The notes beneath the pieces were generated by a model, which worked only from the letters and a program-made list of their open reading frames with translations, was not told the DNA's origin and ran no database searches. 64,000 nucleotides of DNA from Escherichia coli. Lineage in GTDB: Bacteria; Pseudomonadota; Gammaproteobacteria; Enterobacterales; Enterobacteriaceae. Positions 28,199-49,949 of this stretch are shown in pieces. The translations under genes and the position numbers were made by a program. The stretch is taken from the NCBI RefSeq assembly GCF_003334335.1, contig NZ_QOWQ01000005.1, one strand, 5' to 3'. Numbering within the stretch: position 1 is the first letter of the stretch; each line of letters begins with the position of its first letter.

Positions 28199-29062
28199 TT
28201 ATTCAATATTCTGAATCTGCTCGCGCATCTGCTCAATCAACACTTTCAGCTCAATCGCGGAGTTTGTCACTTCGGCATTGATAGACTTCGACGCAAGAGT
28301 GTTCGACTCGCGGTTGAACTCCTGCATCATAAAGTCCAGACGACGACCAACGGCTTCTTTTTTCTTCAGAATGTTGTAGGTCTCTTTGACATGCGCTTCG
28401 AGGCGGTCCAGTTCTTCGGCAACGTCAATTCGTTGTGCCAGCAGAACCAACTCCTGCTCCAGACGGTTGTTTTCCAACTGAACCTGAGCATCTTCCAGCT
28501 TCGCGACCAAGCGTTCACGCTGCCATTGCAGGATTTCCGGCATATGGGAGCGGACTTTGACCACTTCGGCGGTGACGCCTTCCAGACGCTGCTCGATCAA
28601 TGCTTTCAGTGCCTGACCTTCGGTTTCGCGCGCGACAATAAAGTCGTCCAGCGTACCATCCAGCGCCGCGAGAATTTCAGCGGCAATGGCGTCAAGATCC
28701 TGCTCCTGGGCTGCCATCACGCCCGGCCAGCGTAGAATATCAACCGGGTTGATTTCCCCTTCGTCACTCTGCATTTTTACCCAGTTCGCGGCAGTTACCA
28801 GCTGTTTAGCCAGTTTTTCGTTGAGGATCAGCTCACCTTGCGCGCTAACATCTGGCTCATAGCGCAGGGTACATTCCACTTTACCGCGCGTCAGGCGAGA
28901 ACGAATACGCTCGCGAACGACAGGTTCAAGGCTACGGAACTGCTCCGGCAGACGAAAGTAAGTTTCCAGATAACGCTGGTTTACCGAGCGCATTTCCCAG
29001 GTTGCGCTCCCCCATTCACCCTTGATTTCACGCCGGGCGTAGGCGGTCATACTGCGGATCAT
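28199..29062 (-). CDS. yicC: YicC-family stress-induced protein
   Basis: 287-aa ORF with YicC N-terminal domain and coiled-coil C-terminus. Confidence 0.85.
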   Translation of the reverse strand: MIRSMTAYARREIKGEWGSATWEMRSVNQRYLETYFRLPEQFRSLEPVVRERIRSRLTRGKVECTLRYEPDVSAQGELILNEKLAKQLVTAANWVKMQSDEGEINPVDILRWPGVMAAQEQDLDAIAAEILAALDGTLDDFIVARETEGQALKALIEQRLEGVTAEVVKVRSHMPEILQWQRERLVAKLEDAQVQLENNRLEQELVLLAQRIDVAEELDRLEAHVKETYNILKKKEAVGRRLDFMMQEFNRESNTLASKSINAEVTNSAIELKVLIEQMREQIQNIE

Positions 29063-29188
29063 AGACGTTCCTGTTTATAAAAGGAGAGGTGGAAGGATTA
29101 TAGCCATCGATGCCTTGTCAGGATAGGAATAACCGCCGGAAGTCCGTATAATGCGCAGCCACATTTGTTTCAAGCCGGAGATTTCAAT

Positions 29189-29905
29189 ATGCGTCCAGCA
29201 GGCCGTAGCAATAATCAGGTGCGTCCCGTTACCCTGACTCGTAACTATACAAAACATGCAGAAGGCTCGGTGCTGGTCGAATTTGGCGATACCAAAGTGT
29301 TGTGTACCGCCTCTATTGAAGAAGGCGTGCCGCGCTTCCTGAAAGGTCAGGGCCAGGGCTGGATCACCGCAGAGTACGGCATGCTGCCACGTTCTACCCA
29401 CACCCGTAACGCTCGTGAAGCGGCGAAAGGTAAGCAGGGTGGACGCACAATGGAAATCCAGCGTCTGATCGCCCGTGCGCTTCGCGCGGCAGTAGATTTG
29501 AAAGCGCTGGGTGAGTTCACCATTACGCTGGACTGCGACGTGCTTCAGGCTGATGGTGGCACGCGTACCGCTTCGATTACGGGTGCCTGTGTGGCGCTGG
29601 CAGATGCGCTACAGAAGCTGGTGGAAAACGGCAAGCTGAAAACCAACCCGATGAAAGGGATGGTAGCCGCGGTTTCTGTCGGGATTGTGAACGGCGAAGC
29701 GGTTTGCGATCTGGAATACGTTGAAGACTCTGCCGCAGAGACCGACATGAACGTAGTGATGACCGAAGACGGGCGCATCATTGAAGTGCAGGGGACGGCA
29801 GAAGGCGAGCCGTTCACCCATGAAGAGCTACTCACCTTGTTGGCGCTGGCCCGAGGGGGAATCGAATCCATTGTAGCGACGCAGAAGGCGGCGCTGGCAA
29901 ACTGA
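29189..29905 (+). CDS. rph: ribonuclease PH (intact, 238 codons)
   Basis: Starts [14 protein letters not shown] and runs uninterrupted to ...KAALAN stop; no frameshift near the 3' end. Confidence 0.9.
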
Positions 29906-29912
29906 TTTTTAA

Positions 29913-29937
29913 GGCGACTGATGAGTCGCTTTTTTTT
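29913..29937 (+). terminator. pyrE leader attenuator hairpin in the rph-pyrE spacer
   Basis: GGCGACTGATGAGTCGC hairpin followed by an 8-T run, then the pyrE RBS and start. Confidence 0.75.
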
Positions 29938-29969
29938 GTCTGTAGAAAAGTAAGATGAGGAGCGAAGGC

Positions 29970-30611
29970 ATGAAACCATATCAGCGCCAGTTTATTGAAT
30001 TTGCGCTTAGCAAGCAGGTGTTAAAGTTTGGCGAGTTTACGCTGAAATCCGGGCGTAAAAGCCCCTATTTCTTCAACGCCGGGCTGTTTAATACCGGGCG
30101 CGACCTGGCACTGTTAGGCCGTTTTTACGCTGAAGCATTGGTGGACTCCGGCATTGAGTTCGATCTGCTGTTTGGCCCTGCTTACAAAGGGATCCCGATT
30201 GCCACCACAACCGCCGTGGCGTTGGCGGAGCATCATGACCTGGACCTGCCGTACTGCTTTAACCGCAAAGAGGCAAAAGACCACGGTGAAGGCGGCAATC
30301 TGGTTGGTAGCGCGTTACAAGGACGCGTAATGCTGGTAGATGATGTGATCACCGCCGGAACGGCGATTCGTGAGTCGATGGAAATTATTCAGGCCAATGG
30401 CGCGACGCTTGCTGGCGTGTTGATTTCGCTCGATCGTCAGGAACGGGGGCGCGGCGAGATTTCGGCGATTCAGGAAGTTGAGCGTGATTACAACTGCAAA
30501 GTGATCTCTATCATCACCCTGAAAGATCTGATTGCTTACCTGGAAGAGAAGCCGGAAATGGCGGAACATCTGGCGGCGGTTAAGGCCTATCGCGAAGAGT
30601 TTGGCGTTTAA
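29970..30611 (+). CDS. pyrE: orotate phosphoribosyltransferase
   Basis: 213 aa from MKPYQRQF; PRPP-binding motif [13 protein letters not shown]. Confidence 0.9.
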
Positions 30612-30618
30612 AGAAACT

Positions 30619-30642
30619 CGCCGGATGAAAATTCATCCGGCG
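30619..30642. terminator. hairpin between convergent pyrE and slmA
   Basis: CGCCGGATGA-aaat-TCATCCGGCG perfect inverted repeat; U-tracts weak. Confidence 0.5.
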
Positions 30643-30647
30643 TCATA

Positions 30648-31244
30648 TTACTGCAACTGCGCGGCAATTAGCGGCCAGCGGGCGTCAAAATCATCCGTCG
30701 GGCGGTATTTAAATTCGCTGCGGACAAAACGTGACAGCATACCTTCACAGAAGGCCAGGATCTGGCTTGCCAGCAGGGTTTCATCGGTGGTGTAACCTTC
30801 ACCCTCACGCATTCTCTTTTCACGCAATACCTGGCGCAGCTGCGCTTCAATACGCTCGAACAGCTGGTTGATGCGCCCTTGCAGGCGATCCTGTTCAAAC
30901 ATTAGCGCATGACCAGTGAGGATGCGGGTCAGGCCAGGATTACGCTCACCAAAACCGAGAAGCAGCAACACAATCAGACGCAGGCGCGCTGTGGTGTCTT
31001 TCTCATCTTTCAGAATCAGATTGATGCGAGTAATCAGGCTATCTTCGATAAACTCAATCAGGCTATCGAACATGCGGGTCTTACTGGGGAAGTGGCGATA
31101 CAGTGCCGCTTCGGAAACGCCGACAGAGGCGGCCAGTTTTGCCGTCGTGATACGTTGGCTTCCATCGCTGGATTCCAGCATCAGCGCCAGAGACTGAAGT
31201 ATTTCCTCGCGACGGTTCCTTTTCGCAGTTTGTTTTTCTGCCAT
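30648..31244 (-). CDS. slmA: nucleoid occlusion factor SlmA (TetR family)
   Basis: 198 aa from [14 protein letters not shown]; N-terminal TetR-type HTH. Confidence 0.9.
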
Positions 31245-31350
31245 GTTACAAAATACCCCTGAAAATAAGCACTTGCCAGGCGGCACCCACGCTATGACCG
31301 CAAACGAAATGTTTGCGGCTATGTTATGACGTTATTCGGATGCGTATGTG

Positions 31351-31806
31351 TTACTGACGACCAGAGTGACCAAAGCCGCCTTCACCGCGGTCGGTGGCGT
31401 CGAAATCTTCCACCAGATTAAATTCAGCCTGTACTACCGGAACAAAAATCATCTGGGCGATGCGTTCGCCAGGTTGAATGGTGAAGCTGTCCTGACCACG
31501 GTTCCACACGGAAATCATCAACTGGCCCTGATAGTCGGAATCGATCAATCCTACCAGGTTACCAAGCACGATACCGTGCTTATGTCCCAATCCGGAGCGC
31601 GGCAGCATCATTGCCGCCAGTGAAGGATCGGCAATATGAATCGCCAGCCCGGTCGGAACCAGCGTAGTGTCACCCGGAGCCAGTTCTACGGCGTCGTCGA
31701 GACAGGCACGCAGGTCAAGTCCGGCAGAGCCAGAGGTGGCATAAGTCGGGAGCGGAAATTCCTTCCCAACGCGCGGGTCCAGAATCTTAACGTCGATTTT
31801 TTTCAT
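31351..31806 (-). CDS. dut: dUTP diphosphatase
   Basis: 151 aa; dUTPase motifs AGLDLRA and RSGLGHKHG. Confidence 0.9.
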
Positions 31807-33007
31807 CATAACGGGTCACGATCTCGTCGAGTAATAATTGGCCAAGGAGCTCTTTGCGCTCAAGCGGTAAGACTTTATCTCCGTCCTGCCAGAAAAGGTG
31901 TAATGCGTTGTTGTCGCTGTTAAATCCTTGAGTTGGCTGGGAAACATCGTTCGCGCAGATCAGATCAAGGTTTTTACGGATACGTTTTTGCCGGGCGTAT
32001 TCTTCCACATTATTTGTTTCGGCGGCAAATCCAACGACGTAGGGTCGATGGTCTTTTAGTGCGGCAACGCCTGCGACGATATCGGGGTTTTTAACCATTT
32101 TTATTGTTAATTCATCACCCTGCGTGGCCTGCTTTTTGATTTTTTCTGGGGCCACGGTAGCTGCGCGATAATCCGCCACGGCGGCGCAGCCGATAAAAAT
32201 ATTTTGCTGCTGTACAGAAGCATTCACGGCGGCTTCCATTTCCAGCGCGGTCATCACATCAACACGTTTAACAAACGGTGGCGTCGGTAGTGAAACCGGA
32301 CCTGATACCAGCGTGACGTTCGCGCCACGACGGGCAGCGGCGGCGGCGATAGCAAAACCCATCTTGCCGGAGCTGTGATTAGAGATATAACGCACCGGAT
32401 CGAGCGGTTCACGCGTCGGACCGGCGGTAATCATAATGTTCAGATGTTTCAGGTCGTTGACGGGCGAAAAATGCGCCACCGCCATATCCACAATGGTTAA
32501 CGGATCGAGCATTCGCCCAGGACCGATATCACCACAAGCCTGACTGCCACTGTCTGGCCCCCAGATGAGCAAACCACGGGAAGCAAGCACCTCTAAATTA
32601 TGCTGCGTGGCAGCGGCACGGTACATCTGCTGGTTCATGGCGGGGAGCACGGCTACAGGCGCAGGTGTAGCCAGACAAATCGTCGATACCAGGTCATTCG
32701 CCATTCCGGCAGCAACACGGGCAATCAAATCTGCCGTGGCAGGGGCGAGAATCACTAAATCAGCCCATTTACCCAGCTCAATATGGCCCATAGCGGCTTC
32801 GGCTGCCGGGTCCAGCAAACTGTCGGAAACGGGATAACCAGAAACCGCCTGCAAGCTAAGTGGGGTGATAAAGGCTTTTGCCGCTTCGGTCATGGCTACG
32901 CGGACGTCGGCCCCGCGATCGCGCAAACGACGCACCAGTTCAGGGGTTTTATAGGCAGCAATACCGCCGCTAACGCCGAGAACGATTTTTTTACCGGCCA
33001 GGCTCAT
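31787..33007 (-). CDS. coaBC: bifunctional phosphopantothenoylcysteine decarboxylase/synthetase
   Basis: 406 aa from [20 protein letters not shown] (flavoprotein motif); 3' end overlaps the dut start. Confidence 0.9.
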
Positions 33008-33172
33008 GATGATTTTTCCTGTTGGGTGACACCAGAAGTTGGCGATTTTATCACAATACTTTTGTTGTCGTGCCTTCACCTGAGAATCACTTTGCGAGGC
33101 GCTTTCCAGGATTGAAAACTGGCCGTCGATTTAACGGAACGGCTATGACAGGATGCGAGCACCACAAAGGAG

Positions 33173-33847
33173 GTGAAGGTGAAAAACAATTCACAGCTGT
33201 TGATGCCGCGCGAAAAAATGCTGAAGTTTGGTATTAGCGCCTTAACGGATGTCGAGCTGCTGGCGCTATTTCTGCGTACCGGAACGCGCGGTAAAGATGT
33301 ATTAACCCTGGCAAAAGAGATGCTGGAGAATTTCGGCTCTCTTTATGGCTTGTTAACCTCTGAATATGAACAATTTAGTGGCGTTCATGGAATTGGCGTG
33401 GCGAAATTTGCCCAGTTAAAGGGGATTGCTGAACTGGCGCGGCGTTACTACAACGTGCGGATGCGTGAAGAAAGCCCTTTACTCAGCCCGGAGATGACGC
33501 GGGAATTTTTACAAAGCCAGCTCACGGGTGAGGAGCGGGAGATCTTTATGGTGATCTTTCTCGACTCACAACACCGGGTTATAACGCATAGCCGTCTTTT
33601 TTCCGGCACGCTAAACCATGTTGAAGTCCATCCTCGGGAAATTATCCGCGAAGCGATAAAAATAAACGCCTCGGCGCTGATCCTTGCACATAATCACCCT
33701 TCGGGTTGTGCTGAACCCAGTAAAGCGGATAAACTCATTACTGAACGGATAATAAAGAGTTGTCAGTTCATGGATTTACGCGTGCTCGACCATATCGTGA
33801 TTGGGCGTGGAGAGTATGTTTCTTTTGCCGAACGCGGTTGGATTTAA
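33173..33847 (+). CDS. yicR: UPF0758 JAB-domain protein (RadC-like)
   Basis: 224-aa ORF with JAMM-like motif HNHPSG; start uncertain. Confidence 0.8.
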
Positions 33848-34042
33848 CCCGCTATGCGCGATCCTTCGGGATCTTTGTCTGTTCGGGACTTGAGCACATC
33901 GCTGAGTCAGCGTATACTACGCCACCTTTGAGAATCTCGGGTTTGGCATTTGGGCCTGGCAATCGAGAGTTCACATAGAACTGCGATGACCGGGCTGTAA
34001 AGCCTGACGAGGCGCCAATACCCCATACGAAGCTCGAGCTAA

Positions 34043-34300
<258 letters not shown>

Positions 34301-34317
34301 GTACTTAGAGGAAATAA

Positions 34318-34488
<171 letters not shown>

Positions 34489-34506
34489 TTCTCGCTTTGA
34501 TGTAAC

Positions 34507-34534
34507 AAAAAACCTCGCTCCGGCGGGGTTTTTT
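34507..34534 (+). terminator. intrinsic terminator after rpmB-rpmG
   Basis: AAAAACCTCGCTCCGGCGGGGTTTTTT: GC-rich hairpin flanked by an A-run and a T-run. Confidence 0.6.
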
Positions 34535-34585
34535 GTTATCTGCTTGCCCCCATATTGACTGCATCTGTTCATTCCTGGAGATGCT

Positions 34586-35395
34586 ATGCCTGAATTACCC
34601 GAAGTTGAAACCAGCCGCCGCGGCATAGAACCGCATCTCGTTGGTGCAACCATTCTTCATGCAGTGGTGCGCAACGGACGCTTGCGCTGGCCGGTTTCAG
34701 AAGAGATCTACCGTTTAAGCGACCAACCAGTGCTTAGCGTGCAGCGGCGGGCTAAATATCTGCTGCTGGAGCTGCCTGAGGGCTGGATTATCATTCATTT
34801 AGGGATGTCTGGCAGCCTGCGCATCCTTCCAGAAGAACTTCCCCCTGAAAAGCATGACCATGTGGATTTGGTGATGAACAACGGCAAAGTGCTGCGCTAC
34901 ACCGATCCGCGCCGCTTTGGTGCCTGGCTGTGGACCAAAGAGCTGGAAGGGCATAATGTGCTGGCCCATCTTGGACCGGAGCCGCTTAGCGACGATTTCA
35001 ATGGTGAGTATCTGCATCAGAAGTGCGCGAAGAAAAAAACGGCGATCAAACCGTGGCTGATGGATAACAAGCTGGTGGTAGGCGTAGGGAATATCTATGC
35101 CAGCGAATCTCTGTTTGCGGCGGGGATCCATCCGGATCGGCTGGCGTCATCACTGTCGCTGGCGGAGTGCGAATTGCTGGCTCGGGTGATTAAAGCGGTG
35201 TTGCTGCGTTCGATTGAGCAGGGCGGTACAACGCTAAAAGATTTTCTGCAAAGCGACGGTAAACCGGGCTATTTCGCGCAGGAATTGCAGGTTTACGGGC
35301 GAAAAGGTGAGCCGTGTCGGGTGTGCGGTACGCCGATTGTGGCGACTAAACATGCGCAGCGGGCAACGTTTTATTGTCGGCAGTGCCAGAAGTAA
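34586..35395 (+). CDS. mutM: formamidopyrimidine-DNA glycosylase
   Basis: 269 aa; N-terminal PELPEVE catalytic motif and C-terminal zinc finger CRVCGTPI...CRQCQ. Confidence 0.9.
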
Positions 35396-35433
35396 TTCAT
35401 GCGCGCCGGATGGCATACCATCCGGCATAAACG

Positions 35434-37198
<1,765 letters not shown>

Positions 37199-37519
37199 AA
37201 TAAATAGCTGACTTATGGATGTGCTGGGGATTCTATGTATTTAGCACCGGGTTTGCCATTACTTTTCCTTTTTTTGACTTAATTAGCCTCTGTTTGAGCT
37301 GATCTGCCGCTAGATCTTCATTTTTTTTGTATTTTTATGCGATTCATTGAATTTCAGCCAGGATTGCAGCTTTACATCGACAATATCTGGATTCTCGAGT
37401 ATGCAAAATTTTATCTCTATGATTTTTATAATTAAAACATATTTTGTGTATAAAAATCATTCGGGTCGGATTGCTGCGAAAGAAATGATACACTAGCGCG
37501 TCAAAGTAAGTGCGTTATC

Positions 37520-37557
37520 AGTATTCGGGTAGCTGTTGAGCCTGGGGCGGTAGCGTG
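37520..37557 (+). promoter_or_regulatory. JUMPstart element with ops site (RfaH-dependent antitermination) in the waaQ operon leader
   Basis: GGGTAGC...GGCGGTAGCGTG about 50 bp upstream of waaQ; the ops 12-mer is at 37546..37557. Confidence 0.75.
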
Positions 37558-37604
37558 CTTTTTTCTGCTTAACTTAACCAGACAATCACACAAAAGAGTC
37601 GCTA

Positions 37605-38675
37605 GTGGAAAAGCCATTTCGAAAAATCCTGGTCATAAAGATGCGATATCACGGAGATATGTTATTAACTACTCCTGTAATCAGTACACTCAAGCAGAAT
37701 TATCCCGACGCAAAAATCGATATGCTGCTTTACCAGGATACAATTCCGATTTTATCTGAAAACCCAGAAATTAATGCACTCTATGGTATAAGCAATAAAG
37801 GTACGGGAACATTCGATAAAATTAAAAATGCACTTTCACTGATAAAAACTCTGCGTGCGAATAATTACGACCTGGTCATTAATCTTACGGATCAGTGGAT
37901 GGTGGCCCTGCTGGTACGTTGTTTACCTGCTCGTATGAAAATATCGCAGCTTTATGGTCATCGGCAGCATGGCATTTGGAAAAAAAGCTTTACACACTTA
38001 GCGCCTATACACGGTACACATATTGTTGAGCGTAATTTGTCGGTCCTTGAGCCATTAGGTATTACCGATTTTTATACTGAAACAACCATGAGTTACGCCG
38101 AGGATTGCTGGAAGAAAATGCGCCAGGAATTAGATGCACTGGGCGTGAAAGATCATTATGTCGTCATCCAGCCGACAGCCAGACAGATATTTAAGTGCTG
38201 GGACAACGATAAATTTTCTATGGTTATCGATGCGTTGCAACATCGTGGTTATCAGGTTGTGCTGACTTGTGGCCCTTCGGCAGATGATCTCGCTTGCGTA
38301 GATGAAATTGCACGAGGCTGCCAAACAAAACCTATTACCGGCCTTGCCGGTAAAACACGTTTTCCTGAACTGGGCGCATTAATTGATCATGCAGTGCTCT
38401 TTATTGGTGTGGATTCTGCGCCGGGGCATATTGCAGCGGCTGTGAAGACGCCAGTTATTAGCCTGTTTGGGGCCACTGATCATGTATTCTGGCGTCCATG
38501 GACCGAGAATATTATTCAGTTCTGGGCGGGGAATTATCAAAAAATGCCTACCCGGCACGAACTTGACCGCAACAAAAAATATCTTTCTGTTATTCCAGCG
38601 GAAGATGTCATTGCCGCTACGGAAAAGCTGTTGCCAGAAGATGCACCTTCAGCTGACAGGAATGCGCAATTATGA
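37605..38675 (+). CDS. waaQ: LPS core heptosyltransferase III (GT9)
   Basis: GT9 N-terminus KILVIKMRYHGDML aligns with waaC/waaF N-termini; ORF begins with GTG at 37605, alternative ATG at 37641. Confidence 0.8.
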   Translation: MEKPFRKILVIKMRYHGDMLLTTPVISTLKQNYPDAKIDMLLYQDTIPILSENPEINALYGISNKGTGTFDKIKNALSLIKTLRANNYDLVINLTDQWMVALLVRCLPARMKISQLYGHRQHGIWKKSFTHLAPIHGTHIVERNLSVLEPLGITDFYTETTMSYAEDCWKKMRQELDALGVKDHYVVIQPTARQIFKCWDNDKFSMVIDALQHRGYQVVLTCGPSADDLACVDEIARGCQTKPITGLAGKTRFPELGALIDHAVLFIGVDSAPGHIAAAVKTPVISLFGATDHVFWRPWTENIIQFWAGNYQKMPTRHELDRNKKYLSVIPAEDVIAATEKLLPEDAPSADRNAQL

Positions 38676-39796
38676 TCGTGGCATTTTGCTTATATAAATA
38701 TTTTCCATTTGGTGGGCTACAGCGTGACTTTATGCGTATTGCCTCAACAGTTGCCGCACGGGGCCACCATGTTCGGGTATATACACAGTCGTGGGAAGGC
38801 GATTGCCCGGAAGCATTTGAGCTTATTCGCGTACCGGTTAAATCCCATACTAACCATGGACGTAATGCAGAATATTATGCCTGGGTTCAAAACCATCTGA
38901 AGGCACATCCCGCTGATCGCGTTGTTGGCTTTAATAAGATGCCTAGGCTGGATGTTTATTTTGCCGCCGATGTCTGTTATGCCGAGAAAGTGGCGCAAGA
39001 AAAGGGATTTTTCTATCGTTTAACATCGCGCTATCGCCATTATGCTGCATTCGAGCGAGCGACTTTCGAACATGGTAAATCGACGAAACTTATGATGTTG
39101 ACCGATAAGCAAATCGCCGATTTTCAGAAGCATTACCAAACTGAACCAGAACGTTTTCAAATTCTTCCCCCTGGTATCTATCCTGACAGAAAATACAACG
39201 CGCAAATCCCAAACAGTCGTGAAATTTATCGCCAGAAAAATGGCATCACTGAACAACAAAACTTATTGCTGCAGGTTGGTTCAGATTTTGGTCGTAAAGG
39301 TGTGGATCGCTCAATTGAAGCTTTGGCATCGTTACCAGAATCGTTACGCCATAATACGTTGTTGTTTGTTGTTGGCCAGGATAAACCGCGTAAATTTGAA
39401 GTGCTGGCAGAAAAACTCGGTGTGCGTAGTAAAGTGCATTTCTTTTCCGGGCGGAATGATGTGTCTGAATTAATGGCAGCCGCTGATTTATTAATGCATC
39501 CCGCTTATCAGGAGGCTGCAGGTATTGTTCTCCTTGAGGCAATTGCCGCGGGATTACCTGTGTTGACGACTGCGGTATGCGGATACGCACACTATATCAC
39601 AGATGCTAATTGTGGAACGGTCATCGCTGAACCTTTCTCCCAGGAACAATTAAATGACGTTTTACGTAAAGCGTTAACTCAATCTCCATTGCGCATGGCC
39701 TGGGCGGAGAATGCTCGGTATTACGCCGATACTCAGGATTTATACAGCCTGCCGGAGAAAGCGGCAGATATCATTACAGGTGGTTTAGATGGTTGA
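38672..39796 (+). CDS. waaG: LPS core glucosyltransferase I (GT4)
   Basis: 374-aa GT4 ORF; 4-bp overlap with waaQ. Confidence 0.9.
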
Positions 39797-40586
39797 ATTA
39801 GAAGAGCCACTTGCCACACTCTGGCGTGGTAAAGATGCCTTTGCAGAAGTTAAAAAACTGAATGGCGAGGTCTTCCGTGAACTGGAGACGCGTCGCACAT
39901 TACGCTTTGAACTGGCCGGCAAAAGTTATTTCCTCAAATGGCACAAAGGGACGACCCTAAAGGAGATTATAAAAAATCTGCTCTCATTGCGGATGCCCGT
40001 TTTAGGTGCAGACAGAGAGTGGCACGCTATTCATCGACTGCATGATGTCGGTGTTGATACGATGCACGGAATAGGATTTGGTGAAAAAGGGTTAAATCCA
40101 TTAACTCGCACATCATTTATTATTACCGAAGATCTCACTCCCACAATTAGCCTTGAAGATTATTGTGCAGATTGGGCGGTCAACCCGCCTGATGTACATA
40201 TTAAGCGTATGCTGATCGCGCGTGTGGCAACCATGGTGCGCAAAATGCATGCAGCAGGGATTAATCACCGTGATTGTTATATCTGCCACTTTTTACTCCA
40301 TTTGCCATTTACTGGCCGGGAAGATGAATTAAAAATTTCGGTTATCGATCTGCACCGGGCACAGATACGTGCAAAAGTACCACGTCGTTGGCGGGATAAA
40401 GATTTGATTGGTTTATATTTCTCATCAATGAATATTGGTCTGACGCAGAGAGATATCTGGCGATTTATGAAGGTTTATTTTGGGATGCCTTTACGCGATA
40501 TTTATAGACTTGAGATTGATTTACTTAAAAAGGCAAGGATTAAAGCAGGAAAAATAGAAGCAAGAACAATAAGAAAAAACTTGTAA
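39789..40586 (+). CDS. waaP: LPS core heptose(I) kinase
   Basis: 265-aa kinase-like ORF; 8-bp overlap with waaG. Confidence 0.9.
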
Positions 40587-40618
40587 ATAGTATTTTATTA
40601 CAAAAAGGGATTCTAAAA

Positions 40619-41599
40619 TTGTTGAAATATAGAAACTTCGTTGCTAAGAAGAAAAATTTATACCAAAACGAAGTGTCGTATGTTAAAAATTTACATATTG
40701 CACTATGCTTTGACCGTGAATTCATAATGCCAGCGGGTGTTGCATTATATTCAATTATATCCAACAATAGACATATTAACCTTCATTTTCACCTTCTTAT
40801 ATCAGGCATAGAAGAAAAGGAGTGTTCAGCTTTTTACGAACTAGAAGGTCCTAATACATCAATATCTGTATATTATATAACTGATAAATTTGACATTAAT
40901 CCGGATACATTAGTTCTTGGTATTCCTTTATCAACATGTTTACGTTTTTTAATCCCAGAAGTTATTGATGATAAAATAAATAAGATACTTTATCTTGACT
41001 GTGATGTCATATGTAATGGTCCTTTAGATGAACTGGTTGATTATAATTTAAATGCTGATATTGCATGTGTAATTCCAGATTCGCCAGAAATGCAAGAACG
41101 TGTAAAAAAATTAGACTATGGCATTGAGTTTATTAATTATTTTAATGCCGGGGTTATGTTTATTAATACCAGCGAATGGAAAAAAAATAATATAACACAA
41201 AAAGCGTTAGAAATGATCAACAGTGGAAAAGTATATAGGTATGCAGATCAGGATGTGCTCAATATTTTACTTAATGGACGAGTGCATTACCTTGATAAGA
41301 AGTACAATAATAAGACAACATTGTCAGTACGATGTGATGAAGAACAAAAAAACTTGCCCAACACAATTATAATGCATTATGTTACCCAGAATAAACCATG
41401 GTACAAAATATTTAGAGCACAAAATTTTGATCATTATTTTTCAAATTCTCCTTGGAAGAACCATAAAAGAAATCTAGCTCCATCATCAAGTGAGATTAGG
41501 TTAAAGTCTAAAGTTTTTTGGCTAGAAGGAAAATATTGTAAAGCCATTTCTTATTATTATAAGTATTTACTTGTTAAATTATTTGGCTTAAAGATTTAG
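40619..41599 (+). CDS. GT8-family LPS core glycosyltransferase in the slot after waaP
   Basis: 326-aa ORF with GT8 motifs YLDCDVIC (DxD) and HYVTQNKPW; very AT-rich; exact orthology (waaS-position gene versus an extra GT8 paralogue) not resolved. Confidence 0.6.
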   Translation: MLKYRNFVAKKKNLYQNEVSYVKNLHIALCFDREFIMPAGVALYSIISNNRHINLHFHLLISGIEEKECSAFYELEGPNTSISVYYITDKFDINPDTLVLGIPLSTCLRFLIPEVIDDKINKILYLDCDVICNGPLDELVDYNLNADIACVIPDSPEMQERVKKLDYGIEFINYFNAGVMFINTSEWKKNNITQKALEMINSGKVYRYADQDVLNILLNGRVHYLDKKYNNKTTLSVRCDEEQKNLPNTIIMHYVTQNKPWYKIFRAQNFDHYFSNSPWKNHKRNLAPSSSEIRLKSKVFWLEGKYCKAISYYYKYLLVKLFGLKI

Positions 41600-41612
41600 C
41601 TGGAATGAAATT

Positions 41613-42692
41613 ATGAAAATAGCCTTTATTGGCGAAGCTGTTTCTGGATTTGGCGGCATGGAAACAGTCATTCGTGATGTTATTACTACCTTCAGGCAAC
41701 AACATATCCAAAGTGAAATTTTTTTCTTTTGTCGTAATGACAAAATGGATAAGGGATGGCTGGAAGGTATTAAGTACTCGTGTTCATTTTCCAATATTCG
41801 CTTAGGTTTTTTGCGTCGCGCGAAACATATTCATGCTTTAAGCAAATGGCTTCATGATTATCAGCCAGATGTTGTTATTTGTATTGACGTGATCTCGTGT
41901 TTGTATGCGGCCAAAGCTCGTAAAAAATCGGGGATTGATGTACCTGTATTTTCATGGCCGCATTTTTCTTTAGATCATAAAAAACATGCCGAATATATCA
42001 CCTGTGCCGACTATCATTTAGCCATCAGCTCTGGTATTAAACAGCAAATGATTAGCCGGGGTGTACCAGAATCGACAATAAACGTTATTTTTAATCCCGT
42101 TGAGGCGAAAAATTCAGTCATTCCTGCACCCGGGGAAGGCGAAACGGCAACATTCATTTATGTTGGGCGCATGAAATTTGAAGGCCAAAAGCGCGTAAAA
42201 GATCTGCTTGATGGCTTATCACAAGTGCAAGGTGACTGGAAACTTCATGTATTGGGAGATGGCTCCGATTTCGAAAAATGCCAGGCTTATGGTAGAGGAT
42301 TAAATATTGATGATCGAATTGTCTGGTATGGTTGGCAACAACATCCCTGGAAATTAGTTCAGCAAGATATTAAAAAAGTGAGTGCATTATTACTCACGTC
42401 ATCTTTTGAAGGTTTCCCAATGACTCTACTTGAAGCCTTGTCGTGGGGGATCCCTTGTATCAGTGCAGATTGTGTCTCCGGGCCTGTTGATATCATTCAG
42501 CCTGATGTTAATGGTCATTTATATCAACCGGGGGATATGACCGGTTTTGTTGCTCTTCTCAATAAATACATAGCCGGTGAAATTCACATCGCACATGAAA
42601 AAATTCCGGCGTCGATCGATAAATTTTATCAACCGAAATATTACGACAGATTGCAAAAGATAATTATTTCTGTTATTTCCCGGAGGAAATAA
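41613..42692 (+). CDS. waaB: LPS core alpha-1,6-galactosyltransferase (GT4)
   Basis: 359-aa GT4 ORF; length and position match waaB. Confidence 0.8.
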   Translation: MKIAFIGEAVSGFGGMETVIRDVITTFRQQHIQSEIFFFCRNDKMDKGWLEGIKYSCSFSNIRLGFLRRAKHIHALSKWLHDYQPDVVICIDVISCLYAAKARKKSGIDVPVFSWPHFSLDHKKHAEYITCADYHLAISSGIKQQMISRGVPESTINVIFNPVEAKNSVIPAPGEGETATFIYVGRMKFEGQKRVKDLLDGLSQVQGDWKLHVLGDGSDFEKCQAYGRGLNIDDRIVWYGWQQHPWKLVQQDIKKVSALLLTSSFEGFPMTLLEALSWGIPCISADCVSGPVDIIQPDVNGHLYQPGDMTGFVALLNKYIAGEIHIAHEKIPASIDKFYQPKYYDRLQKIIISVISRRK

Positions 42693-43711
42693 TGCAGCAG
42701 GTTTTTTTCCAGGAGACTGAGTTTCTCAATTCGGTTATTGATTATAATCATAAAATAGAAGCAGAAAATCTTTGTCTGGATATTGCTTATGGGACTGACA
42801 AAAATTTTCTTTTTGGATGCGGAATATCGATTGCTTCAATATTAAAATATAATGAAGGAAATCAATTATGCTTTCATATTTTTACTGATTATTTCGGTGA
42901 TGACGATCGCAAATATTTTGATGCCCTGGCCAGGCAATATAAAACAAGAATTAAGATATATTTAATTAATGGTGATCGACTCCGTTCATTACCCTGCACC
43001 AAGAACTGGACTCATGCTATTTATTTTCGTTTTGTTATCGCCGATTACTTTTTTAATAAAGCACCCAAAGTTCTTTATCTGGATGCAGATATTATTTGTC
43101 AGGGAACTATAGAACCACTTATCAATTACACGTTTTCTGAACATACAGTCGCAATGGTTGTTACAGAAGGACAAAAAGACTGGTGGGCAAAACGTGCTCA
43201 TTCGTTAGGTGTTGCTGGGATTGCTAATGGTTACTTTAACTCCGGTTTTTTACTGATTAATACTAATCAATGGACGAATGAGCGGGTTTCTGCACGGGCC
43301 ATTGCAATGTTAAGTGATCCAGAGATAGTCAAAAAAATAACACATCCTGATCAGGATGTATTAAATATGTTATTGGCAGACAAACTTGTTTATGCTGATA
43401 TTAAATATAACACTCAGTTTAGTTTAAATTATCAACTAAAAGAAAGTTTTAAAAACCCAGTAACTAACGATACAGTTTTTATTCATTATATTGGTCCAAC
43501 TAAACCCTGGCATGACTGGGCCTGGGATTATCCAATATCACAAGCTTTTATGGCGGCAAAAAATGCTTCACCATGGAAGGATACTGCGTTATTGAAACCG
43601 GTTAATAGTAATCAATTAAGATACAGTGCTAAACATATGTTGAAAAAAAAGCAATATATCAAAGGATTTGGCAACTATCTTTTGTATTTTATAAAAAAGC
43701 TAAAGCATTAA
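42692..43711 (+). CDS. waaO: LPS outer-core GT8 glycosyltransferase (waaO/waaI type)
   Basis: 339 aa; GT8 motifs YLDADIIC and HYIGPTKPW; donor sugar specificity cannot be read from sequence. Confidence 0.7.
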   Translation: MQQVFFQETEFLNSVIDYNHKIEAENLCLDIAYGTDKNFLFGCGISIASILKYNEGNQLCFHIFTDYFGDDDRKYFDALARQYKTRIKIYLINGDRLRSLPCTKNWTHAIYFRFVIADYFFNKAPKVLYLDADIICQGTIEPLINYTFSEHTVAMVVTEGQKDWWAKRAHSLGVAGIANGYFNSGFLLINTNQWTNERVSARAIAMLSDPEIVKKITHPDQDVLNMLLADKLVYADIKYNTQFSLNYQLKESFKNPVTNDTVFIHYIGPTKPWHDWAWDYPISQAFMAAKNASPWKDTALLKPVNSNQLRYSAKHMLKKKQYIKGFGNYLLYFIKKLKH

Positions 43712-43779
43712 TACTGATAATCTATACTCTAAATAATTCGAGTTGCAGGACAAAAAGCCAGTGGCGTTTTGAGGAACGC

Positions 43780-43870
43780 TTGCGTTGGCCCTGAAATGCC
43801 GAGTAACTCGCCGATGCAGCACATGCAACTTGAAGTATAACGAGTATATAAAGTAATGATATAAGGATAG
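43780..43870 (+). repeat. possible ERIC-flank-like fragment in the waaO-waaJ spacer
   Basis: GCAGCACATGCAACTTGAAGTATAACGAGTATA resembles the flanking arm of the ERIC copy at 51001..51082; no 44-bp core present. Confidence 0.35.
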
Positions 43871-43874
43871 CCTT

Positions 43875-44891
43875 GTGAACTCATTTCCTGCCATAGAGAT
43901 AGATAAAGTTAAAGCCTGGGATTTTAGGCTTATTGATGAAAATACTGCTGAAAGTTTAAATGTTGCCTATGGTGTCGATTCCAATTATCTTGATGGTGTA
44001 GGTGTTTCCATTACTTCAATTGTCATTAATAATCGACATGTTAATCTTGATTTTTATATTATTGCTGATGTTTATAACGACGATTTCTTTCAAAAAGTTG
44101 AGAAACTTGCTGAGCAATACCAATTAAGAATCACACTTTATAGAATAAATACTGATAATCTTCAGTGCCTGCCTTGTACACAAGTCTGGTCAAGAGCAAT
44201 GTACTTCCGTTTATTTGCTTTTCAATTATTGGGAGTAACACTTAATCGTTTGCTTTATCTTGATGCCGATGTAGTTTGTAAGGGAAATATTAGTCAACTA
44301 TTGCATTTAGAGTTTAATGGAGCGGTGGCTGCAGTAGTCAGGGATGTAGACCCAATGCAGGAAAAGGCGGTAGTCAGATTATCTGATCCTGAACTTCGGG
44401 GGCAGTATTTTAATTCTGGTGTCGTTTACTTAGACCTAAAAAAATGGACAGAAGCAAAACTAACCGAAAAAGCACTGTCTATTCTTATGAGTAAAGATAG
44501 TATTTATAAGTATCCTGACCAGGACGTTATGAATGTCCTACTAAAAGGGATGACAATATTCCTGCCACGTGAGTTCAATACTATATATACAATAAAAAGT
44601 GAGTTAAAAGATAAAACGCATCAAAAATATAAAGAGTTGATAAAAGAGGATACTCTTCTTATTCATTATACTGGGGCCACCAAGCCGTGGCACAAATGGG
44701 CAATTTATCCATCGGTAAAATACTATAAAATAGCTTTAGAAAGATCCCCCTGGAAAGATGACTCACCACGAGATGCAAAATCAATTATTGAATTCAAAAA
44801 AAGATATAAACATCTGTTAGTGCAACATCATTATATCTCAGGACTCATTGCAGGAGTGTGTTATCTTTGCCGAAAATATTACCGTAAATAA
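43875..44891 (+). CDS. waaJ: LPS outer-core GT8 glycosyltransferase (waaJ/waaR type)
   Basis: 338 aa; GT8 motifs YLDADVVC and HYTGATKPW. Confidence 0.7.
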   Translation: MNSFPAIEIDKVKAWDFRLIDENTAESLNVAYGVDSNYLDGVGVSITSIVINNRHVNLDFYIIADVYNDDFFQKVEKLAEQYQLRITLYRINTDNLQCLPCTQVWSRAMYFRLFAFQLLGVTLNRLLYLDADVVCKGNISQLLHLEFNGAVAAVVRDVDPMQEKAVVRLSDPELRGQYFNSGVVYLDLKKWTEAKLTEKALSILMSKDSIYKYPDQDVMNVLLKGMTIFLPREFNTIYTIKSELKDKTHQKYKELIKEDTLLIHYTGATKPWHKWAIYPSVKYYKIALERSPWKDDSPRDAKSIIEFKKRYKHLLVQHHYISGLIAGVCYLCRKYYRK

Positions 44892-44908
44892 CATTTAACT
44901 GGTTTAAC

Positions 44909-45607
44909 ATGATTCAGAAGAATAAAATCAAAGATTTAGTTGTTTTTACCGATGAAAATAACTCAAAGTATCTCAATGTATTAAATGACTTTCTTTCTTA
45001 TGATATTAATATCATCAAAGTTTTTCGTTCTATAGATGATACAAAAGTCATGCTTATTGATACCGATTACGGTAAATTGATACTTAAAGTTTTTTCGCCT
45101 AAAGTAAAACGCAACGAACGTTTCTTTAAATCTCTTTTAAAGGGAGATTATTATGAACGCCTTTTTGAGCATACTCAAAAAGTGCGTAACGAGGGGCTAC
45201 ATTCTCTCAATGATTTTTATTTGTTGGCAGAACGGAAAACATTACGTTTTGTCCATACTTATATCATGCTTATCGAATATATCGATGGCGTAGAGTTGTG
45301 TGATATCCCCGATATTGATGAAACTTTAAAAAATAAAATTCAACAATCAATTCGTTCATTACACGAACACGGTATGGTATCTGGTGATCCTCACCGCGGT
45401 AATTTTATTATTGAAAATGGTGAAGTACGCATTATTGATCTTTCAGGAAAACGGGCATCTGCACAACGTAAAGCGAAAGATCGTATTGATTTAGAGCGAC
45501 ATTATGGTATTAAGAATGAGGTTAAAGATCTCGGTTATTATCTTTTAGTTTATCGTAAAAAAATACGTAATCTTATGCGGCGTTTGAAAGGGAAGCCAGC
45601 ACGATAA
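44909..45607 (+). CDS. waaY: LPS core heptose(II) kinase
   Basis: 232-aa kinase-like ORF; length and position match waaY. Confidence 0.75.
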   Translation: MIQKNKIKDLVVFTDENNSKYLNVLNDFLSYDINIIKVFRSIDDTKVMLIDTDYGKLILKVFSPKVKRNERFFKSLLKGDYYERLFEHTQKVRNEGLHSLNDFYLLAERKTLRFVHTYIMLIEYIDGVELCDIPDIDETLKNKIQQSIRSLHEHGMVSGDPHRGNFIIENGEVRIIDLSGKRASAQRKAKDRIDLERHYGIKNEVKDLGYYLLVYRKKIRNLMRRLKGKPAR

Positions 45608-45678
45608 AGTAAAAGTCTTACATTTAAACGTCTTCGTCAGGACATTTCTATGCGGAGTTCTTATTTCACAGGTTTATC

Positions 45679-46488
45679 ATGAAGAATATTAGATACATTG
45701 ACAAAAAAGATGTTGAAAACCTGATAGAAAGTAAAACGTCTGATGATGTTATTATTTTTCTTTCCGGCCCCGCATCGCAAAAAACACCATTGTCAGTGCT
45801 GCAGACAAGGGATGTTATTGCTGTCAATGGTTCTGCACAATATCTATTAAGTCATAATATTATTCCCTATATTTATGTACTTACCGATGTTCGCTTTTTA
45901 CATCAACGGCGTGATGATTTTTATAAATTTAGCCAGAGAAGTCGTTATACCATCGTAAATGTTGACGTTTATGAACATGCTTCTGAAGAAGATAAGCGGT
46001 ACATCCTTCAAAACTGCCTGGTACTACGTTCATTTTACCGCAGAGAAAAAGGTGGATTGATCAAGAAGATCAAGTTTAATATTTTGAGCCGAATTCATAA
46101 AGAGCTCCTGATCTCTGTACCTTTTTCTAAAAAAGGTCGTCTGGTTGGCTTTTGCAAGGATATTAACCTCGGTTATTGTTCATGCCATACCGTTGCTTTT
46201 GCTGCAATCCAAATAGCCTATTCGCTGAAGTATGCTCGTATTATCTGTTCAGGCCTTGATTTAACGGGTAGCTGTTCGCGTTTCTATGATGAAGATAAGA
46301 ATCCTATGCCCTCAGAGTTGACTCGGGATTTATTCAAAATTTTACCATTTTTCCGTTTTATGCGTGAAAATATAGAAGATATCAATATTTATAATTTATC
46401 CGACGATACTGCAATTCAATATGATATTATTCCCTATATGAAAATATCCGAAATTGAAGAGCCGTGTGTTTATGAAAAAATAAGCTAA
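45679..46488 (+). CDS. waaZ: LPS core biosynthesis protein (KdoIII-associated, WaaZ-like)
   Basis: 269-aa ORF in the waaZ position; assigned by position and composition. Confidence 0.6.
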   Translation: MKNIRYIDKKDVENLIESKTSDDVIIFLSGPASQKTPLSVLQTRDVIAVNGSAQYLLSHNIIPYIYVLTDVRFLHQRRDDFYKFSQRSRYTIVNVDVYEHASEEDKRYILQNCLVLRSFYRREKGGLIKKIKFNILSRIHKELLISVPFSKKGRLVGFCKDINLGYCSCHTVAFAAIQIAYSLKYARIICSGLDLTGSCSRFYDEDKNPMPSELTRDLFKILPFFRFMRENIEDINIYNLSDDTAIQYDIIPYMKISEIEEPCVYEKIS

Positions 46489-46540
46489 TATTTTATATGT
46501 GTTTATTACGTGTTATAAATTATATTGGAGTTGGCTAATA

Positions 46541-47683
46541 ATGATTAAAAAAATAATATTTACCGTCACACCAATATTTTCTATACCGCCAAAAGGAGCT
46601 GCAGCGGTTGAAACATGGATTTATCAGGTCGCAAAAAGACTTTCGATTCCAGTAACTATCGCCTGTATTCGAAACGAAGGTTACCCAACCTACACAAAAG
46701 TAAATGATCACTGTGATATTCACTACATTGGTTTTAGTCGAGTCTATAAACGACTTTTCCAAAAGTGGACTCGACTTGATCCTGTGCCATATTCTCAGCG
46801 TATTTTAAATACCCAACCTAAAAACACTGATCCGAAAGACTCTGTTATTGTTATCCACAATAGCATGAAGCTGTATAAACAGATTCGTAGCAGAAGCCCT
46901 CACGCGCAGCTAGTTATGCATCTTCATAATGCTTTCGAGCCAGGTGAGTTAGACAAAAATGCAAAGATAATTGTTCCTAGCCAGTTTCTTTTCGATTTCT
47001 ATTCGGAAAAAATGCCTGATGCAAATATTGCTATTGTGCCTAATGGTTTTTGTTCTGAATCGTATGAACAAAATAATACTGAAGATTTGAGGCAGAAACT
47101 GAACATTGATGCAAATGATACCGTGTTATTATTTGCAGGAAGGATATCACCAGATAAAGGTTGCCTGATGCTTATGGAGGCTTTTAATCAGCTGAATAAG
47201 ATACAAGATAACCTCAAACTGGTGATTGTCGGAGATCCTTTTGCCAGTAAAAAAGGCGAAAAAGCTGAATATCAGAAAAAAGTTCTGGATGCAGCGAAAG
47301 CTATTGGAGCGCAATGCATTATGGCGGGTGGACAGCCTCCAGAGCAGATGCATAACTATTACCGTTTAGCAGATTTAGTTGTTGTTCCTTCTCAGGTAGA
47401 AGAAGCTTTTTGTATGGTAGCTGTTGAAGCGATGGCGGCAGGTAAACCAGTGCTTGCCAGTCAAAAAGGTGGAATTAGTGAGTTTGTTCTGGAAGGAATT
47501 ACAGGCTATCACCTTGCAGAGCCTATGACATCTGAAAGTATTCTCGCGGATATTAAGCGCGTTTTGGCGGATGCTGACAGAGCTCAAATTGCTAAAAATG
47601 CCCGAAATTTTGTTTTCTCAAAATATAGCTGGGAACATGTTACTCAGCGTTTTGAAGCACAAATACAAGACTGGTTTGGTTAA
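46541..47683 (+). CDS. waaK: GT4 LPS outer-core transferase (WaaK-like, putative GlcNAc transferase)
   Basis: 380 aa from MIKKIIF, preceded by ggag; GT4 E-x7-E motif (VEEAFCMVAVEAMAAGKPV); occupies the terminal slot before waaL. Confidence 0.7.
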   Translation: MIKKIIFTVTPIFSIPPKGAAAVETWIYQVAKRLSIPVTIACIRNEGYPTYTKVNDHCDIHYIGFSRVYKRLFQKWTRLDPVPYSQRILNTQPKNTDPKDSVIVIHNSMKLYKQIRSRSPHAQLVMHLHNAFEPGELDKNAKIIVPSQFLFDFYSEKMPDANIAIVPNGFCSESYEQNNTEDLRQKLNIDANDTVLLFAGRISPDKGCLMLMEAFNQLNKIQDNLKLVIVGDPFASKKGEKAEYQKKVLDAAKAIGAQCIMAGGQPPEQMHNYYRLADLVVVPSQVEEAFCMVAVEAMAAGKPVLASQKGGISEFVLEGITGYHLAEPMTSESILADIKRVLADADRAQIAKNARNFVFSKYSWEHVTQRFEAQIQDWFG

Positions 47684-47702
47684 AAATTATTGGATTTGAA
47701 GA

Positions 47703-47738
47703 GCCTGCCTGAACTTAATGTCAGGCAGGCTTTTTTTT
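47703..47738 (+). terminator. intrinsic terminator after waaK (bidirectional, shared with convergent waaL)
   Basis: GCCTGCCTGA-acttaatg-TCAGGCAGGC perfect 10-bp stem followed by an 8-T run. Confidence 0.7.
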
Positions 47739-48954
47739 ATTTATTCCGCATTGCTAACAGTAAACCAACAATCAAGCCAATTGGTTTGAGATCAACTTCC
47801 TCGAAGTTACCTCGAATAATATAAAAGCTTACAAGCGTTAAAAATAGTAGTAATTGACCATTATAAGGAGTGACGACAACTGTTTTAAACGTTGCATTAG
47901 CTGTCTCTTTGATAATAGAGCCATACAGATAAAGTAAAGCGAGTAGTCCAGCCAAACCCGCTGCAAACCAAATTGACAAAACAACGTTGTGTGGCCCAAT
48001 GGATTGCCTGAACTTCCATGACGGAAAATCTACAACACGCTTATTATATATTGCATGGTAAATATCATCGCCGTAGCCATATCCCTTAAGAGGATTTTCC
48101 ATAATTAATGTCCACGCCGTACCTTGAGTACCATTGGTATAGCGATAAGAACTGTCGGTCTGTTGAAGTTTATAAATAAGCCTGTCTTTACCAGCATGAT
48201 CACCTTTATAGGTAAATACACCCACTGCGGCAACAGAAATAACGATGGAAGTCAGCATCAATAATTTCCACTGACGATTTAAGATTAACCATAGCAGAGT
48301 CACTATGAATACTGCCAGCCATGCACCACGAGACAGCGTTCCTAATAGCAGAAATAAGAAAACTGCACTAAAAATTACGAATGCTATTTTATAAGAGGTT
48401 TTCTTGATAAGCCAAAGGTTTAATAATGCTGGAAACAGAAACACCATTGAATCGGAAATACTACGGTGTTCATAGGTGGAAAATGGCATTATTCCTTTAT
48501 TATAATCCTGAATATAAAGAATAAGTTCAACAAGACAACGTAAGCCAAGTCCGGTAACTAATGAGTATAGTACAATTTTACCAATGCTTTCATTATCTTC
48601 ATCTTTTAATAATGCAGGTATAAGTAAACTATAGGCCAAAAATCCTTTAAGTACCGTATTACTGAATTCTTTAAAACTGATTTTCAGATCAGGTGATATA
48701 AAAGTAGCATATAAAAGAATGAGTGATAGTGCCAGGACACTATAAAAAAGATTATTTTTATAGAGTACTTTAAATGTTCCCGGAGCACGAGAAACTTGAT
48801 AGATTACCGTAATAATCATTAGTATAGATATGATGTGTTTATAACGGGTTATACCATCAAGGAAAAAGGTTGCAATAAAGAGGAATACCAACGCTTTATT
48901 CCAGTACGGTTTCCACTTTTCTTTATTACGTAGCGCCAGCGAGGCTGTTAACAT
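47737..48954 (-). CDS. waaL: O-antigen ligase
   Basis: 405-aa polytopic membrane ORF, Wzy_C-type; convergent with the waaK operon; AT-rich. Confidence 0.8.
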   Translation of the reverse strand: MLTASLALRNKEKWKPYWNKALVFLFIATFFLDGITRYKHIISILMIITVIYQVSRAPGTFKVLYKNNLFYSVLALSLILLYATFISPDLKISFKEFSNTVLKGFLAYSLLIPALLKDEDNESIGKIVLYSLVTGLGLRCLVELILYIQDYNKGIMPFSTYEHRSISDSMVFLFPALLNLWLIKKTSYKIAFVIFSAVFLFLLLGTLSRGAWLAVFIVTLLWLILNRQWKLLMLTSIVISVAAVGVFTYKGDHAGKDRLIYKLQQTDSSYRYTNGTQGTAWTLIMENPLKGYGYGDDIYHAIYNKRVVDFPSWKFRQSIGPHNVVLSIWFAAGLAGLLALLYLYGSIIKETANATFKTVVVTPYNGQLLLFLTLVSFYIIRGNFEEVDLKPIGLIVGLLLAMRNK

Positions 48955-48992
48955 TGCTTCTCCACCATCTTAAATAATATATAACGTATTAA

Positions 48993-49949
48993 TCAGGAAT
49001 TGATTTTATTAAATACCGTTTCTGCAGTCAGATGAGCAAGATCTTTATCTGGTGCCCTACAAACCACCTGATTCTTCCCATATCCGCCAATTAATCCCGG
49101 ATCGGTTGGTCCATAAACCGTGATATTCGGTCGATCCAGTGCTGCAGTTAAATGACTTAACCCAGTGTCTACCGATACCACGAATTTCGCTCCGGCCAGC
49201 ACACGGGCAACACCTTCCAGACTCATCTTCGGCAATACTTCAACATAAGCAAATCCTTCCGCCAGTCGTTTCGCCCGTTTTTCCTCATGCGGCGCACCCC
49301 ACGGAAGTTTAATGCGAATCCCTGAATCTGCCAGTAAACCAATCAATTCTCGCCAGTGTTCTTCCGGCCAGTGTTTATCATCACGGGTCGTCGCATGAAG
49401 AAATACGGCATATTCGCCAGCATCTGTAGGCAGGTTCGTCAGAAAATGCTGTGCGATAGCATAATCGCCCTGGGTTTGCGGTTTGCTATAGCCCAGACTT
49501 TTGGCAAAAAGTTCGCGGATGCGTTCTACGGCGTGCTGCTGTTTTGCAATATGATGTTTACGATTGTAAAACAGGCTGGCTAAAGGTTCGCGAGCGGTTT
49601 GCCAGTCCATTCCATGCTTTACGCCATGCGCCAGACGCGTCACCAGCGCCGCGCTTTTTACCAGCCCCTGAGCATCGATAACTGCGTCATAGTTCTCTGC
49701 TTGTAGCGCTTCACGAAACGCTTTGCGTTCAGCTTTTATGGGGGCCGAGAACCAGGCTTTACGCCAGCGACGTATTGCCACAGGAATAACTCGCTCAACG
49801 GCGGCGTGCCAGGAAGGAATCTGTGCGAACCCTTCTTCCACCACCCAGTCAAACTTAATCCCTGGGATTGCCTGCTGGGCATCAGTGAGTGCGGGCAACG
49901 TATGGAGAACATCGCCCATCGACGATGTTTTAACGATCAAAACCCGCAT
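48993..49949 (-). CDS. waaC: LPS heptosyltransferase I (GT9)
   Basis: 318-aa GT9 ORF MRVLIVKTSSMGDVLH. Confidence 0.9.
   Translation of the reverse strand: MRVLIVKTSSMGDVLHTLPALTDAQQAIPGIKFDWVVEEGFAQIPSWHAAVERVIPVAIRRWRKAWFSAPIKAERKAFREALQAENYDAVIDAQGLVKSAALVTRLAHGVKHGMDWQTAREPLASLFYNRKHHIAKQQHAVERIRELFAKSLGYSKPQTQGDYAIAQHFLTNLPTDAGEYAVFLHATTRDDKHWPEEHWRELIGLLADSGIRIKLPWGAPHEEKRAKRLAEGFAYVEVLPKMSLEGVARVLAGAKFVVSVDTGLSHLTAALDRPNITVYGPTDPGLIGGYGKNQVVCRAPDKDLAHLTAETVFNKINS

Follow-up and report, generated by a model that had tools for sequence, protein, structure and literature searches.

The rph–pyrE operon of a natural, non-K-12 Escherichia coli: an intact rph gene followed by an attenuator hairpin with a derived one-base deletion

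The junction between the genes rph and pyrE was analysed in a stretch of 64,000 nucleotides of Escherichia coli DNA (NCBI RefSeq assembly GCF_003334335.1, contig NZ_QOWQ01000005.1), which is called the window in the following. Both genes are located on the plus strand and are separated by a rho-independent terminator (Table 1). The upstream gene is an open reading frame of 238 codons plus stop, which begins with the ATG at 29189 and reads through to KAALAN (C-terminal end ATQKAALAN), just as an earlier note on this DNA had described it. Its translation matches TIGR01966, the NCBIfam equivalog of ribonuclease PH, with 380.8 bits (cut-off 141.5), and residues 2–236 cover positions 1–235 of the 236 positions of the model, so that the match extends from end to end. 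Judged by this family match the product is ribonuclease PH (RNase PH), and a phosphorolytic 3′-exoribonuclease activity is predicted for it. The product of the downstream gene, PyrE, matches TIGR00336 with 240.6 bits (cut-off 106.8). In the natural isolate 65COLEC both genes are annotated by RefSeq at exactly the corresponding positions, 29189..29905 and 29970..30611 of the window. A mechanical list of open reading frames gives 218 amino acids for pyrE, starting from an in-frame ATG 15 nt before the pyrE start and within the Shine-Dalgarno region (29955–29972); the start at 29970 (213 amino acids) agrees with MG1655 and RefSeq. Upstream of rph no sigma-70 promoter was convincing under the criteria of the scan. 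A perfect TATAAT is visible there at 29147–29152.

Table 1 Features of the rph–pyrE junction (positions in the window)
Feature	Position	Strand	Evidence
rph, intact ribonuclease PH gene	29189..29905	+	ORF, translation, TIGR01966, 65COLEC annotation
10-bp direct repeat GCAGAAGGCG, two copies	29798–29807, 29881–29890	+	repeat search
rph-1 deletion site, GGGGG run with all five G	29855..29859	+	MG1655 alignment
TAG, not in frame with rph in the window and unused; ends translation prematurely in rph-1	29874..29876	+	MG1655 translation
rph stop TGA, 5 nt upstream of the hairpin	29903..29905	+	sequence
pyrE attenuator hairpin	29911..29932	+	terminator scan, folds, alignments
hairpin 5′ arm AAGGCGACT	29911–29919	+	sequence
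hairpin loop GATG	29920–29923	+	sequence
hairpin 3′ arm AGTCGCTTT	29924–29932	+	sequence
attenuator run of eight T, overlapping the hairpin	29930..29937	+	sequence, fold
probable pyrE Shine-Dalgarno sequence GAGGAG	29957..29962	+	inferred from position, 7 nt before the ATG
pyrE, orotate phosphoribosyltransferase, 213 codons + TAA	29970..30611	+	TIGR00336, 65COLEC annotation

Between the two genes the terminator scan found a 9-bp stem with a 4-nt loop, together with eight consecutive T (29911–29937). Compared with shuffled sequence the fold of the hairpin has a z-score of −4.7, and none of 200 shuffles was as stable. The earlier note had placed a hairpin and a T-run directly after rph and had assigned rph and attenuator together to 29189–29937, which is accurate; the hairpin begins five nucleotides past the rph stop. 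From the usual size of a ribosomal footprint, a ribosome terminating at the TGA of rph is expected to extend over the 5′ arm of the hairpin. Rfam covariance models gave no match at E ≤ 1 in the region 28900–30800, an absence which is no argument against an attenuator at this site.

MG1655 and W3110 carry the rph-1 mutation, a deletion of one base near the 3′ end of rph, as the earlier note had correctly stated. In an alignment of positions 29780–29985 with the MG1655 junction, the comparison which that note had proposed, the window has GGGGG where MG1655 has GGGG, and W3110 (NC_007779.1) matches the GGGG allele exactly. Thus the base deleted in rph-1 is there in the window. A frameshifted 3′ end like that of MG1655, the finding which would have spoken against an intact gene, was looked for in the same alignment and is absent. 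Beyond the G-run the frame of MG1655 continues with ARGESNPL and a stop, resulting in 228 amino acids versus 238 in the window; the shift alters the last 15 codons. The premature TAG ends 34 nt before the hairpin, the true stop only 5 nt before it. The truncated RNase PH of K-12 is inactive (PMC11148124). Upstream of the G-run the rph genes of window and MG1655 differ by nine further substitutions, of which two are non-synonymous; residues 138 and 216 are alanine and threonine (A138, T216) in the window and valine and isoleucine (V138, I216) in MG1655 (window 29601 and 29835, codons 138 and 216).

With a 72-nt query the GGGG allele was found as an exact match in 168 of 5,425 complete E. coli genomes, among them MG1655 (NC_000913.3), W3110, BW25113, J53 and HMS174. 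Among 60 listed matches of these 168, 59 are laboratory strains, and K-12 derivatives where the name was recognised; the remaining one is a human isolate of 5.3 Mb. As the exact GGGG allele is limited to these 168 genomes, intact rph is the overwhelming norm among natural E. coli. The human isolate 2015C-3101 (NZ_CP027221.1; stool, USA, 5.3 Mb) has the GGGG allele and an rph gene which is labelled 'frameshifted' in RefSeq (844–1559 of its retrieved locus); its GGGG is either an independent natural mutation of the rph-1 type or a homopolymer assembly error.

The junction of rph and pyrE in K-12 is reportedly a UTP-sensitive, translation-coupled intercistronic attenuator, as Poulsen et al. and Bonekamp et al. 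in 1984 and Jensen in 1993 are said to have described. The leader attenuator of pyrBI in E. coli works by the same logic: polymerase pausing is UTP-sensitive, the ribosome catches up and the terminator hairpin is prevented. While pyrBI uses a dedicated short leader peptide, the upstream frame of the rph–pyrE attenuator is a full enzyme gene, rph. The window has the same genes as the K-12 operon in the same order and spacing, with a stop codon adjoining the terminator hairpin and a U-tract behind it, and the mechanism, which is established for K-12, is applied to the window on the basis of this common anatomy. According to the coupling model, transcription passes the intercistronic terminator only if the polymerase is closely followed by a ribosome; at low UTP the polymerase moves more slowly, which lets the ribosome catch up (PMC11148124; PMC2784333; PMC5933015 supplement). 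In the window the polymerase would meet a rho-independent terminator at the end of rph, beginning 5 nt past the stop. When UTP is low, the slow polymerase would be followed closely by the ribosome, which would reach the TGA and cover the 5′ arm; the hairpin would not form and transcription would run into pyrE. With abundant UTP the polymerase would outrun the ribosome, the hairpin would form and transcription would end. In rph-1 strains the ribosome leaves the message at the premature TAG, 34 nt short of the hairpin; termination is therefore always high and pyrE is starved. Since the frame of rph is intact in the window, the coupling between translation and transcription should be normal here.

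This supports one half of the earlier reading, in which a wild-type arrangement was taken to imply normal attenuation-controlled expression of pyrE. The other half has to be restricted, because a derived deletion of one base in the hairpin was overlooked and the strength of the terminator is probably not that of the species norm. In the alignment the 3′ arm of the attenuator reads AGTCGC-T8 in the window and AGTCGCC-T8 in MG1655, i.e. one C is missing at 29929–29930, and from the rph stop to the ATG of pyrE this missing C is the sole difference between the two. The canonical hairpin AAGGCGACT-GATG-AGTCGCCTT is accordingly missed by the window by a single base (AGTCGC-TTT), and in terms of its sequence the window attenuator is a variant of the known element and not a different element. 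With CC reduced to C, G29913 pairs with U rather than with C. In the fold three residues of the T-run are drawn into the stem and five stay free, whereas in MG1655 two are drawn in and six stay free. The majority form of the hairpin has a predicted energy of −14.3 kcal/mol, the window form one of −11.6 kcal/mol; with only the G+C core considered, the values are −11.7 and −8.4 kcal/mol, respectively, which corresponds to a predicted loss of stability of 2.7–3.3 (about 3) kcal/mol. Because a G-U pair replaces a G-C pair and the free U-tract is shortened from six to five, the terminator is probably somewhat leakier than the species norm. A leakier terminator would lift the basal expression of pyrE, mainly when pyrimidines are replete.

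The single-C allele is not restricted to the window. A 71-nt query centred on the site matched 488 of the 5,425 complete E. coli genomes exactly; nearly all others, including MG1655 and the O157:H7 strain EDL933, have one extra base at this site. The combination of GGGGG and single C was found exactly in 485 of the 5,425 genomes. The combination of GGGG and single C, i.e. rph-1 together with the short 3′ arm, had no exact match among the 5,425 genomes with a query of 99 nt, where the best matches reach 99.0 %, equal to one difference; it is on these best matches that the absence rests and not on the number of genomes within the 99 % identity band. When a 901-nt query was used and the ranking was sampled, ranks from about 1 to 460 were all at 100.0 % and the next sampled rank was at 99.2 %. 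Due to this abrupt fall the allele apparently sits on one local 901-nt haplotype, which fits a single origin.

The polarity of the change was read from an alignment of hairpins retrieved from enterobacterial genomes, one genome per species. The search pattern accepted C as well as CC and fixed 17 of the 22 stem-loop bases, so that only the other bases and the C/CC state were free to vary and diverged hairpins could not be returned. In all of the 20 species representatives retrieved with this pattern the site reads CC and the rest of the hairpin is the same as in the window, while the flanks vary. They include E. albertii, cryptic Escherichia, Citrobacter, Enterobacter, Leclercia, Pseudocitrobacter and Silvania; Salmonella and Klebsiella are not among the 20. 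Since CC is found in all 20 representatives, the alignment identifies the single-C form as derived.

The same change is known from laboratory evolution. In MG1655 the two C residues are at positions −41 and −42 from the ATG of pyrE, and the loss of either one results in exactly the attenuator sequence of the window. Several MG1655 lineages which evolved independently of each other acquired a mutation listed as 'pyrE(G-41ΔG terminator)' (Knöppel et al. 2018, PMC5933015 supplement); the main text of that study calls it parallel at the nucleotide level. Besides the classic 82-bp deletion, the same table also lists 'A-33ΔA in polyU in terminator' and 'G-42C terminator'. In a second laboratory, two out of the six endpoint strains carried 'Δ1 bp pyrE/rph intergenic (-41/+54)' (Sandberg et al. 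2016, PMC4786092), and a 'C->T intergenic' mutation between rph and pyrE is mentioned elsewhere (PMC6941894). The terminator mutations have been interpreted as raising read-through of the attenuator and thereby relieving the pyrimidine limitation caused by rph-1 (PMC5933015). Both one-base laboratory alleles, G-41ΔG and Δ1 bp (-41/+54), have AAGGCGACTGATGAGTCGC followed by eight T and are nucleotide-identical to the window at this site. However, they arose in an rph-1 background, where they compensate for broken coupling, whereas the window allele is natural and goes along with an intact rph.

The 82-bp deletion between rph and pyrE, which recurs in adaptive laboratory evolution of MG1655 (Conrad et al. 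2009, PMC2784333, and others), affects the same regulatory junction. It is itself absent from the window, in which both bounding copies of GCAGAAGGCG are kept, and because of the extra G these are 83 nt apart. In K-12 the deletion brings the stop codon of rph beside the hairpin (PMC2784333; PMC5933015 supplement), a position which the intact frame of the window already provides.

In summary of the literature, the intact rph–pyrE arrangement as it was first described is already known and belongs to textbook E. coli biology. The natural single-C attenuator differs only slightly from the known element and is identical at the nucleotide level to a recurrent laboratory adaptation; no mention of it as a natural form was found in literature using the phrase 'pyrE attenuator'. 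The locus is very probably to be read as the undamaged, well-known rph–pyrE operon of a natural non-K-12 E. coli, with a derived one-base deletion in the hairpin and with a probably leakier attenuator. From the anatomy, the allele frequencies, the polarity and the identity with the laboratory mutation, all of which are observed, we infer an effect on expression: a widespread natural lineage (about 9 % of the complete genomes, many of them clinical isolates) would have fixed the same terminator-weakening deletion which is selected in the laboratory, and it may run a re-tuned, leakier pyrE attenuator. We consider the chances for and against such a re-tuning to be evenly balanced.

A competing explanation is that the single C is real but neutral, that the attenuator works within the normal range as long as rph is intact, and that the allele became frequent by hitch-hiking with a successful clone. 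This is a serious possibility, although we tend to doubt it. The single haplotype agrees with it as well, being consistent with a single origin, and the frequency of 9 % on this haplotype could reflect clonal success together with the sampling of clinical lineages and not selection on pyrE. In addition, the hairpin of the window keeps a stable predicted fold (−11.6 kcal/mol) and is recognised as a terminator by the scan. The laboratory mutation was selected in strains with broken coupling; where rph is intact and coupling works, the single C could affect pyrE only slightly, perhaps hardly measurably. Against neutrality stands the predicted loss of 2.7–3.3 kcal/mol and of one U of the tract. 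The hairpin is moreover identical in the 20 species representatives while the flanks vary, with the qualification that 17 of the 22 stem-loop bases were fixed by the search pattern. Finally, exactly this change can be selected in rph-1 K-12, where it is annotated as a terminator mutation, and loss of only one U of the tract was likewise selected for in that experiment (PMC5933015).

That the missing C is an error of sequencing or assembly is practically inconceivable, and this explanation was rejected. Single-base indels are the commonest assembly error, and the GGGG of 2015C-3101 might be such a case, but the site is a CC dinucleotide and not a long homopolymer. The 488 complete genomes with the allele come from many different laboratories, hosts and countries and have an identical 901-nt haplotype.

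From the intact rph gene the earlier note had concluded that the window does not originate from MG1655 or W3110. The window is indeed neither of them, but the argument excludes only the rph-1 lineage and not K-12 as such. As the K-12 strains JM83, JM109 and XL1-Blue are rph+ (PMC11148124), intact rph alone does not exclude K-12, and the window could be imagined to come from an independent rph+ lineage of this kind or from a repaired MG1655. The gene order of the window would allow this, since it is collinear with the region 3.78–3.85 Mb of MG1655, in opposite orientation. In sequence the two clearly differ: positions 1–30737 of the window have 230 mismatches and 5 gaps in comparison to MG1655 (99.2 % identity over 30.7 kb), and the identity is about 96 % (96.4 %) over 30238–40496. 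The waa genes are 86–88 % identical to those of MG1655 or unmatched, and htrL is missing. Within rph itself there are the nine substitutions before the G-run, and with the 901-nt query K-12 genomes reach 98.8–98.9 %, versus 100 % for natural isolates. The features expected of a K-12 genome, namely near-identity throughout, the K-12 waa genes and htrL, are therefore not found in the window. Natural isolates of human, poultry, pig and water origin match the window best, and over 24.9 kb it is 100 % identical to some of them, e.g. 65COLEC, PSJ-29 and NCTC9038. On the basis of the 230 mismatches in 30.7 kb, the diverged waa cluster and the lack of htrL the window is from neither MG1655 nor W3110, nor from any other K-12 strain. 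An origin from an rph+ K-12 strain was rejected by this window-wide comparison, and its remaining probability is negligible. In practical terms, the status of rph alone is unusable for calling a sequence K-12 or non-K-12.

If the undamaged operon of a natural lineage does carry a re-tuned attenuator, the set-point of this regulatory element varies in nature. The locus offers a natural experiment on a textbook attenuator, because the deletion which compensates for rph-1 occurs also in a successful lineage without the rph-1 defect. A re-tuned attenuator would further call for caution against taking K-12 or the majority hairpin as the only wild type in the engineering or modelling of pyrimidine control.

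Some minor observations concern the surroundings of the operon. The waa (LPS core) cluster of the window at about 40500–49000 is not of the K-12 type. The annotation of the identical natural genome has a family-8 glycosyltransferase where K-12 has waaS, and an 'LPS N-acetylglucosaminyltransferase' adjoining rfaL, which is itself different. The gene htrL, located between rfaD and kbl in MG1655, would be expected at about 52108–52169 of the window, where the window has about 60 nt in place of some 1.3 kb in MG1655. Directly downstream of pyrE, between the convergent genes pyrE and slmA, there is a strong 10-bp hairpin with seven G-C pairs (30619–30642), which was scored as a minus-strand terminator of slmA and may act in both directions.
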